From: Escherichia phage MiataMamis
Sequence record: PP925834.1
Strand: one strand, 5' to 3'
DNA: 64,000 nt
In this document: positions 45,294-50,930 of the stretch, one piece after another
Position numbering within the stretch: position 1 is the first letter of the stretch
How the letters are laid out: each line of letters starts with the position of its first letter
Program-made: the position numbers and the translations under genes
The notes under the pieces: generated by a model
Seen by the model: the letters and a program-made list of their open reading frames with translations, nothing else
What the model was told of the DNA's origin: nothing
The model's database searches: none

Positions 45294-48200
45294 TTAACGA
45301 GAGAAAGTTGCATAAGCTTCAAGATCATACTGCTGATCACCAGGAAGCATGGCACCTATGGAGCCAAACCCCATGACCCTGCCTTCTACTGCCAACTGCA
45401 GTCTGAACCCTACCCATCCGGAACTTCTTGCAGCCTCGATGTTATCGCTATACCCGAAAGTAGCAAGCTCGTCAACTCCAGATCCGAACAGCAACTGGAT
45501 CTGATTTCTCGGAAGCCCTATAATTTCAGGAATATATGCGCCGAAGTACACCATTTGCCCTACTTTAGGACCGCTGCCATACTCCATCGGTCTGCTTGCA
45601 GAGAAAGTCTTCATTCCTGAAGTCCCTGCCGGATTTGGGTATGCCCCGTTTGTTGCTCTGCCTATCCACATTCTCCACTGTGGTGTCATCTGTTTGACAG
45701 TGAAAGATGCTGAAGACGTCTTGCGGCCTGCATCATCCGTAACTACAAACGTTATGTTGACATTACCGGGCGCTTTAAATGTTACCAGTCCTGTGTTAGC
45801 ATCAACGGTTGCTATGCCAGTATTACTACTTTCCCAAGTCTTTCTGATCCCTGTTACGTTGGAAGGGGTGATAGAGGGTTCCTGCATCTGCAGTTTACCG
45901 CCAACAATACCTATGCCATTGCCAGGGTTATACAACACCCCAACCTCATCTACAATATTCCCAGCCTTGAGGCTGTATTTTCTTGAGAAGTTGTAGGTTC
46001 CGTTATAAGTATGTGTCCCTGAGAATGTGACATCAGCCTTGCCGTGGGAGATGCAAACCAAAGCATACTTCCTGTCAGGCAACGTTGCTCCAGTCTCCGG
46101 GTGAGTTTTACCTACCTGGAACACACTCGGGTCAGTGGAGTCGTGGCTATCACTAACGGAGCTTGGACCACCCATCAGTTGTGACAAGCAATTCCTTACC
46201 CATGTCCAGTTATTATCACTGGAGAAGTCCACAGTCAAATCAAACACAACCCACTCATTTGGCTTCCACACAGGTGTTGTAATAGACTTGCCTACACCAC
46301 CTCCTTGGAGTGTTGCCGACTGTTCAGTGATCAGGGCCGCATAGGCCAGAGTTCCTAAACTCAGAGTCTGGCTTGCTGTCCTCACTACCTTAGAATCAGC
46401 ATCTGTGAAGTTGTTGATGATCTGGAATGTGCCATAAGTGTTTTTACAGGTAATTCTGGCGTTCAGCGTGTCAATCTTCCTCACATCTGCCATAGCAGTG
46501 TTAGACACAGAGAAGTCAGAAGCTTTAGCTGAGTTTGCCGCAGCAGCAGGATCAACGTTAAGAGTTGCGTTGAACTGACAGGCGGGGGTAACTAGCAGCT
46601 TGTTATCACCTATTTGCTTCCATGAAACACTTTGAACAGAGGGATTCCATTTAATACCTGAGAAAACCTTAGCAACCCTTGGCCCCAAAGCTCCAGTCCT
46701 GTTGTCTTTACAGCACATGGACATGGTGATCGTTGACGGAGTTGCCTGACCGAACAATTCCTGTGCTTTTGCAGAGGACATGGTGTAGAAATTGTCCTTA
46801 ACAAACTCATCAGCGGCTAAAGATCCGTCAGCCCTCCACCACTGAACCTGATACCCTGTTTTGTCCCAACCACCGACCTGCTTCAAGTCTTCCCAGGAGA
46901 TTTCCAAATCCCCAGTGGTAGGGTTGATTGCAGCAGTTCCTGGTGTTCCAGATGACCATAATGGGATATCGAACCACGCTGGTTTAACAGATTGTACTGC
47001 GTTCGGCCCTATTGCAGCAGCAAGTTGCTGACCCATCAACACACGAGCATCTTTTACCAGACCCCACTCAATCATGGACCCAGAGTATCCTTCTTTCTTG
47101 TAGGCTGAGGATCCGTTCAAATGGACGAGTCGGCTTGTGCCAAAGTTATATGCTCCACCACCGTTGTCGTCTGCAAAATTGTATATAACCCTATCTCTGA
47201 TATCTTTCCATGCTCTACCGCCAATCTCGTAGTCATGGTCATAACATCTTTGCAATGTTGTCCAGCAAATGATCGCCATCCTTCTGCCGTCACTAAAGCC
47301 AAAGGCCTGATCGTTGAGCTCTCTCCACAAGTAGCAGTTAGTGGTCCACATAGCTCTGTGAATGTTGAACCAATTTATAGACCTGGCTGCATTGTTGTAG
47401 GCGGTGCCTTCTAGCGTAGGCCACACTGCATTAACCAGCATGTCCTCTGTCCCTGCGTCTATAAGGAATCCTCTCACTTTCTTACCCATTCCTACCCTAT
47501 CCTTGGCAATCCATGAGCCGAACAATTTCAGTTTAGGACCGATTACGGCATCCTCTGGATGCTCAAGAGAGACATACTTCAAGTATACTGTAGGATCACC
47601 GTAGGTGCCATCACAAACAGCTTTGTGCATGTTTTCACCAAGGTCCAGACGGATACCTGTGAGAGTTTTGGTATCATCTGTGAACTTATCTGTCAAATCA
47701 AACTCGTACCACCACCACCCGGCTCCAAGTAAAACTTTCTTACAGCGCTTGGAGTCTGTGTCGGAGATTCTTTTATCCCCTGCATATGGCGAGTCTGCAA
47801 ACTGGTAGTGCAGAGCAACTTCAAAAGGATGTGTGGATGTTCCGTTTTCTGCAAGAACTTGCTTCCCGATCAGATCGCATTTAATAATCATCACGACACG
47901 TCTGTATCCATTGGCAACTGGAACGTCGAACGGATACCTCGCACCATCCATATTCGCATGCAAAGCTGCGAAATTTATGTATGGGTCAACAGCGTCACCT
48001 AAAGTTTCAGGCCCTGGGATCATCTTGTACTTCTTGACCTGTCCCATGATATAGTCGCTGCCGTAGGTTGCAGCCTCGAAGCAAGAACCGCTGTCAGGCA
48101 GTTCAGCAGGCCCCCAAAAGTATGCTCCGTAACAATTATAGAACCATTTGTTAGGGTCATAGTTATTCTTGAAGGTCTGAACCTCGTTGGCCTGTTTTGT

Positions 48201-50930: not shown

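Follow-up and report, generated by a model that had tools for sequence, protein, structure and literature searches.

The last gene of the tail-fibre module of Escherichia phage MiataMamis, an orthologue of rV5 gp27, may encode a giant accessory adhesin

Background

We report a computational analysis of the largest gene in a 64,000-nucleotide stretch of DNA from Escherichia phage MiataMamis (sequence record PP925834.1; the whole stretch is referred to as the window), an rV5-like myovirus of the genus Vequintavirus. The gene lies at 45294..50930 on the minus strand and encodes a protein of 1878 amino acids (aa), the orthologue of gp27 of phage rV5, whose name is used for it throughout. Our preferred, if still tentative, reading is that gp27 is an accessory adhesin on the tail of the virion, very large, present in low copy number, dispensable under some conditions and predicted to bind glycans. 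The gene is already known and widely sequenced; the present work adds the placing of its N-terminal domain in the RCC1-like class by transitive homology, a core of 1000 residues restricted to the family, an N-terminal M-x-PIP motif that recurs across genera even without the propeller, two allelic hot-spots and a catalogue of natural null alleles.

Orthology and genomic position

The open reading frame (ORF) is a complete coding sequence that opens with ATG and runs for 1878 codons and a stop. A first-pass annotation, made from the sequence alone, had picked it out at these coordinates as the largest of the window and had placed it at the end of the tail module; both points hold, the next largest complete ORF encoding 1144 aa. 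The protein matches PHROG 15684, the group of rV5 gp27, over its full length (residues 1-1878 of 1878, 4409 bits), and it agrees with the rV5 protein (a YP_002003529-type 'Ig-like domain-containing protein', 73-94% identity) in length, genomic position and neighbours. There is no substantive difference between the two, the MiataMamis gene being one allelic variant. Matches were found in 120 phage records, 107 of them covering at least 80% of the length of the gene at 80-94% nucleotide identity; the gene is 94.3% identical in nucleotides to that of phage EdH4, and no paralogue was found elsewhere in the window. The rV5 paper lists gp27 (1878 aa, 208 kDa) as a conserved hypothetical protein with Big_2, and the BASEL orthologue, bas48_0041, is labelled 'lateral tail fiber protein with intimin domain'.

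On the minus strand gp27 is preceded by the baseplate genes and then by genes for a large fibre, a deacetylase fibre, two short-fibre paralogues with a chaperone and a 581-aa fibre protein; downstream of it the coding strand switches, which makes gp27 the last gene of the tail-fibre module. The start codon follows a ribosome-binding site, GGAG, read from the sequence 7 nucleotides (nt) upstream of the ATG (50937..50940, minus strand). Two terminator-like hairpins flank the gene on the minus strand, and both carry a terminator annotation in EdH4: one, with a 9-bp stem and a T-rich tail, stands between the upstream fibre gene and gp27 (50950..50971), and the other directly past the gp27 stop, at the end of the late tail operon (45258..45279). 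The hairpin ahead of gp27 would attenuate read-through, which fits low expression and a low-copy product.

Purifying selection and natural disruptions

Comparison with three orthologues by the method of Nei and Gojobori gave ratios of non-synonymous to synonymous divergence (dN/dS) of 0.07-0.10 overall and below 0.2 in every segment; gp27 is a real, constrained coding gene under strong purifying selection. Even so, at least six isolates that form plaques carry a truncated, frameshifted or partly deleted copy. Phage phita32 carries a CAA to TAA change at codon 1439, ime a 2-nt deletion at codon ~1051, and naswa and Alma 1-nt deletions at codons ~761 and ~207, respectively; codons ~434-1416 are absent from APCEc02, where the rest is split into three ORFs, and three internal deletions leave four ORFs in V18. 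At record level only, a split gene is annotated for ECP26 and EPFV3, and the match to typing phage 14 covers just 21% of the gene. This catalogue rests on deposited sequences, in which single-base changes may be sequencing errors, but the phita32 nonsense codon, the 2-nt deletion of ime and the kilobase deletions are harder to dismiss in that way. Broken alleles found alongside strong purifying selection suggest, indirectly, that gp27 is dispensable for plaque formation on laboratory hosts and yet useful in nature.

The N-terminal peptide and its distribution

The first seven residues of gp27, MLPIPLL (50910..50930, minus strand), are invariant and form a putative docking element. The motif M-[LFY]-P-[IF]-P-[LI]-[LF] starts the last protein of the tail module in Vequintavirus, in Phapecoctavirus and in phi92-like phages, the N-termini compared being MLPIPLL in gp27, MFPIPI in Phapecoctavirus and MYPIPLF in phage PHB05. 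In every locus examined it was found in the gene at the gp27 position only (window 50910-50930, minus strand; L003:9001-9021; L009:5956-5976; L008:10013-10033), and it is kept even where the domain that follows is non-homologous. The example is the Ig-only protein of the phi92-like phage PHB05, whose syntenic last gene encodes 939 aa and shares Big_2 and C-terminal parts with the Phapecoctavirus protein, but lacks the propeller and is not significantly similar to gp27 aa 1-460. From the sequence comparison we infer that the N-terminal peptide is conserved for docking or assembly and that different modules can be exchanged behind it. The start called in the metagenomic relatives lies 4 codons too far upstream (MENTMFPIPLL).

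The RCC1-like propeller

Residues ~20-440 (49611..50873, minus strand) correspond to an RCC1-like beta-propeller, the most conserved part of the protein, with about 80% identity across the family. The RCC1-type repeats that the first-pass annotation had described at the N-terminus are right in substance, though gp27 itself stays below the Pfam thresholds. A full-length Pfam scan gave no RCC1 match (families PF00415, PF13540 and PF25390), and with the first 460 aa WD40_RLD reached E=2e-4 (21.2 bits against a cut-off of 150) and RCC1_2 E=0.076 (13.3 bits against 22).

The assignment is carried by intermediate proteins. An exhaustive phmmer search with aa 1-1200 against 1.84 billion cluster representatives, which stand for ~15 billion proteins, returned, outside the family and its fragments, six proteins of 382-891 aa that share only aa ~1-198 with gp27, at 34-46% identity. 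All six belong to PHROG 11922, 'tail protein', whose members score 22-31 bits on PF00415 (cut-off 21.7) and match the RCC1-like domain with E-values of 1e-9 to 1e-16; searched against the PDB, the PHROG 11922 profile found the RCC1-like domains of HERC2 (9.5e-13), HERC1, RPGR, RCC2 and UVR8. With hhalign, gp27 aa 1-496 aligned to PHROG 11922 aa 1-449 at a probability of 99.9 and an E-value of 1.3e-34, the closing segment (~395-440) included. By this transitive profile homology gp27 belongs to the same repeat family as the eukaryotic RCC1-like domains (RLDs) of RCC1, HERC2, RPGR and UVR8. No Ran guanine-nucleotide exchange or chromatin role is implied. In gp27 only two Gly-rich repeat signatures can be recognised (aa 59 and 175), and a seven-blade fold is not confidently modelled. 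The length of ~420 aa suits seven blades; BLAST and hhalign self-comparison gave no clear repeat series within the propeller, with one weak off-diagonal hhalign match (E 0.05), and the AlphaFold2 confidence (predicted local distance difference test, pLDDT) is below 50 at aa 215-435. The role in DNA condensation that has been speculated upon for phage phAPEC6, the only literature lead on RCC1 proteins in phage tails, is unsupported here. Word-indexed homologue searches with aa 1-450 and with the C-terminal 448 aa yielded almost no new relatives.

By tblastn, aa 1-200 recur at 30-42% identity in Phapecoctavirus and in Cronobacter and Salmonella myoviruses. The carrier in phage tuntematon is gp128, an 890-aa 'tail protein' that is, as is gp27, the last fibre-module gene before a strand switch, and that combines an RCC1 propeller with Big_2 and a variable C-terminus. 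Proteins of PHROG 11922 (Phapecoctavirus phAPEC8 and tuntematon gp128, Cronobacter GAP31-like and Salmonella SSE121-like phages) have the M-x-PIP peptide, the propeller, Big_2, a variable C-terminus and the last tail-module position in common with gp27, to which they are 36-46% identical over aa 1-200; unlike gp27 they pass the Pfam RCC1 threshold, and at ~850-890 aa they lack its orphan core of ~1000 aa (aa ~500-1430). On a metagenomic contig of 123 kb, a 41%-identical relative stands in a fully conserved gene order.

The orphan core

For residues 200-1200 no homologue outside the family was found among the cluster representatives, and nothing was returned there from Pfam at E<=10, from NCBIfam or from a PDB search with the family-alignment profile, whose only matches were of Big_2 type. 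AlphaFold2 models of two overlapping halves, built with 16-17 homologues, had mean pLDDT values of 43 and 57, with few beta-sandwiches usable.

From the N-terminal side, and all on the minus strand, the propeller is followed by a beta-rich region (aa ~450-840; 48411..49583) holding at least two moderately confident beta-sandwiches (aa ~450-560 and ~735-840) without a homologue outside the family. Next come a highly conserved orphan segment rich in Cys and Trp (aa 841-960; 48051..48410), predicted with low confidence to be partly helical, and a confidently modelled beta-sandwich of ~146 aa (aa 979-1124; 47559..47996; pLDDT 70-85) that resembles carbohydrate-binding modules (CBMs). A conserved, Trp-rich segment of predicted helical structure follows (aa 1126-1330; 46941..47555), with low model confidence, no Pfam or PDB sequence match and 77% identity across the family at aa 1161-1200, and after it comes a beta-sandwich like that of fibronectin type III (FN3) domains (aa 1331-1424; 46659..46940). 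The first-pass annotation had called the central regions beta-rich, which describes part of them and misses ~300 conserved residues of predicted helix (aa ~845-960 and 1126-1330); its FN3-like domain stands at the level of fold only, the gathering threshold of PF00041 not being reached.

Foldseek comparison of both models with the PDB gave generic strings of Ig-like and beta-sandwich domains at template-modelling (TM) scores of ~0.1 (cadherins, NUP210, S-layer proteins, complement C5, transglutaminase), the transglutaminase and complement C5 matches being artefacts of beta-sandwich arrays in a low-confidence model. Fold-level matches also include intimin, FdeC, the Ig domain of lambda gpV, T5 pb6, the N4 gp65 sheath, Endo-A/D of glycoside hydrolase family 85 (GH85) and a Big_2-CBM56 glucanase. 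The CBM-type matches can provisionally be assigned to aa 979-1124, the sole module of fitting size. No catalytic fold was among the matches; the N-terminal model was too poor to inform. If an enzymatic fold has escaped recognition, aa 1126-1330 is the one segment that could contain it.

The APCEc02 deletion (L010 2129-4801; aa 434-1416) takes out almost exactly this core, with a 10-nt overlap at the junction, and joins the propeller to the C-terminal module in the architecture of the short PHROG 11922 proteins.

The C-terminal module and allelic variation

Residues 1431-1878 (45297..46640, minus strand) make up a replaceable C-terminal module of Ig-like domains, Big_2 and a tip of ~120 aa. The BIG2-like domain expected here is present: Big_2, the intimin-type bacterial Ig-like domain (PF02368), scores 34-37 bits, above its gathering cut-off of 22.8, at aa 1682-1733 (45732..45887, minus strand), a region modelled at pLDDT 80-93. 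The BASEL 'intimin' label reduces to this single Big_2 module, the NCBIfam intimin model scoring 20.6 against a cut-off of 2050; a single Ig-like module is all that gp27 has in common with intimin, invasin and FdeC, and it lacks their beta-barrel anchor, LysM and C-type-lectin Tir-binding tip. The Pfam column of the database places PF26918 beside Big_2 on this module, a family not among the matches in the Pfam copy searched.

Identity within the family falls from ~80% over aa 1-240 to 22-40% past aa 1440, and metagenomic relatives (53-58% identity) have the first 76% of the protein in common with gp27 and a different C-terminus. Among E. coli Vequintaviruses the tip itself (aa ~1752-1878; 45297..45674, minus strand) falls into two allelic classes: the megablast match is lost over the last 381 nt in about one-third of the listed records, and against the APCEc02 allele aa 1752-1878 are 63% identical and aa 1483-1751 95% identical. 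Two classes of tip are what an end that determines specificity would be expected to show. The other hot-spot is internal. At aa 961-1125 dS is 1.7-2.4 and dN 0.11 against CarlMeissner and phita32, and dS is 0.02 against EdH4, a mosaic of synonymous divergence that points to allelic exchange centred on the CBM-like sandwich and agrees with the 'moderate allelic variation' reported for the last large fibre gene in BASEL.

Evidence from virions and known receptors

Multidimensional protein identification (MudPIT) of rV5 virions recovered three semi-tryptic gp27 peptides (9 spectra, 3.1% coverage, poor preliminary-score ranks), a signal at the level of that of rIIA, and gp27 is not among the proteins that its authors labelled structural. 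On sodium dodecyl sulphate-polyacrylamide gels, rV5 virions are reported to give major bands at 288 and 174 kDa, yet the largest encoded protein is gp27, at 208 kDa. Published genetics place recognition of the required receptors elsewhere: the NGR/ECA (N4 glycan receptor/enterobacterial common antigen) glycan serves as receptor for the deacetylase fibre (window 56123-58195), and lipopolysaccharide (LPS) outer-core glucose presumably for the short fibres. Neither the 2026 phi92 nor the 2025 phiTE cryo-electron microscopy (cryo-EM) paper assigned density to a gp27 homologue.

Discussion

In the accessory-adhesin reading, the M-x-P-I-P-L-L peptide, perhaps together with the propeller, would dock gp27 on a conserved baseplate or fibre partner, and the rest of the protein would project outward from the tail periphery. 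The CBM-like domain (aa 979-1124), Big_2 and the allelic tip might then bind surface or environmental glycans reversibly, which would let the phage meet its hosts more often or stay close to them, while irreversible adsorption would be left to the NGR/ECA deacetylase fibre and the LPS-core short fibres. An optional adhesin of this kind, with irreversible adsorption performed elsewhere, would account for purifying selection in nature together with loss in laboratory-propagated isolates. There are precedents for such modules. T4 Hoc is dispensable and adheres to mucin. More generally, Hoc, the C-terminal Ig domain of lambda gpV, T5 pb6 and N4 gp65 are surface-exposed Ig-like modules, non-essential for plaque growth and thought to be weakly glycan-adherent, and the last three are among the fold-level matches of gp27. 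From these proteins gp27 differs in being 5-10 times larger, in its propeller and orphan core and in the place of its gene in the fibre module; it has no sequence homology to Hoc.

The BASEL annotation and text would instead make gp27 a genuine lateral tail fibre or a receptor-binding protein, one of three phi92-type fibre sets, setting host range on O- or K-antigen types. Its location in the fibre module, the pairing of a conserved N-terminus with a variable C-terminus and two alleles of the tip, a pattern seen in receptor-binding proteins, and the want of a gene assignment for fibre II of phi92 all suit this reading, and a fibre needed only on encapsulated or smooth strains could well be lost on laboratory hosts of K-12 type. 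We nevertheless consider it unlikely. Pfam and PHROG scans and the AlphaFold2 models show no coiled coil, beta-helix, collar or Peptidase_S74 chaperone, and the longest predicted helix is ~26 aa, which bears out the earlier remark that no fibre-type coiled coil is present; no chaperone gene follows gp27, its N-terminus is a propeller and not a fibre shaft, and its fold matches are monomeric, beads-on-a-string proteins. The mass-spectrometric signal is marginal for gp27 while other fibre proteins were detected, and phi92-like phages lack a full-length orthologue.

That marginal signal counts in favour of placing gp27 away from the tail, either as a Hoc-like head or neck decoration fibre or as a late non-structural protein freed at lysis (a free adhesin or decoy), as does the dispensability of the gene. 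The last 290 aa of gp27 match PHROG 215, a group named 'structural protein with Ig domain' that PHROGs assigns to 'head and packaging'; capsid decoration proteins typically carry Ig-like domains, there are weak matches to decoration protein gp29 (9kmh), and the virion of the jumbo phage phAPEC6 contains RCC1-like proteins to which no location is assigned. Such a placement is quite improbable, however, for a gene inside the tail-fibre operon and far from the head genes, with an N-terminal module common to proteins annotated and positioned as tail proteins; in rV5, the head is already decorated by a small and abundant protein, gp61. The first-pass annotation had suggested a decoration or adhesin protein, of which the adhesin is preferred here. 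Its further suggestion of an ejected protein finds no support, gp27 having no feature of internal or ejection proteins and its gene lying outside the head module. The tail-associated enzyme that it also proposed would be a virion-borne or released depolymerase or hydrolase with a catalytic domain in the orphan core (aa ~841-960 and 1126-1330), flanked by CBMs. Outside the propeller, that core ranks with the best-conserved stretches of the protein; many of its Asp, Glu, Trp and His residues are invariant, E1162, D1163, E1235, E1280 and E1288 among them, glycoside hydrolases commonly come with CBM-like and Ig-like modules at their flanks (as in the GH85 Endo-A/D and Big_2-CBM56 glucanase matches), and neighbouring fibre genes carry glycan-active domains. 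With no recognisable catalytic domain (beta-helix lyase or hydrolase, sialidase, esterase and the like) and no positive evidence, we retain the enzyme as a rival but hold it to be highly doubtful.

A bolder extension of the accessory-adhesin reading, and an improbable one, is that M-x-P-I-P-L-L serves as a portable docking tag by which interchangeable accessory proteins of RCC1-propeller, Ig-only and giant gp27 types plug into one baseplate socket of the Vequintavirinae and Stephanstirmvirinae. Here gp27 would be a monomeric 'super-adhesin' with a ~1000-residue core of new folds, possibly a new glycan-active enzyme, and might correspond to unassigned peripheral density on the multivalent baseplates.

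Neighbouring genes and database records

The 581-aa fibre protein next to gp27 (rV5 gp28; window 50979-52724, minus strand) has a metagenomic orthologue with the Pfam domains Phage_phiTE_241_N/C, which relates gp28 to the 'third putative fibre' of phiTE, a phage studied by cryo-EM; it is a candidate docking partner for gp27. Further upstream, the genes at 53012-54058 and 55070-56110 (minus strand) are paralogous short-tail-fibre genes, both of PHROG 4465, as described for Vequintavirus, and between them lies a Mu gpU-type fibre assembly chaperone gene (54471-55055, minus strand). On the other strand, four consecutive small ORFs (40780-41804, plus strand; 87, 87, 87 and 77 aa) look paralogous by eye, with N-terminal MAT/MTT..., a G-x-VV motif and a C-terminal ILGE-like motif, and are 'hypothetical' in relatives. 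Fifteen records (MG0656xx) named 'Campylobacter phage', host Campylobacter jejuni, hold the gp27 gene at 85-90% nucleotide identity in genomes of 128-143 kb, and look like mislabelled or contaminating coliphage genomes.

Conclusions

Phages of the rV5 type are often put forward for therapy and for the biocontrol of E. coli O157, and their broad host range is credited to a multi-fibre 'Swiss army knife'. The largest protein that they encode is gp27, whose gene takes up ~4% of the genome. The orphan core and the N-terminal motif are leads for structural work. If gp27 is indeed an optional adhesin, its spontaneous loss in laboratory propagation would be explained, and its locus would be a safe site for payload insertion or retargeting.

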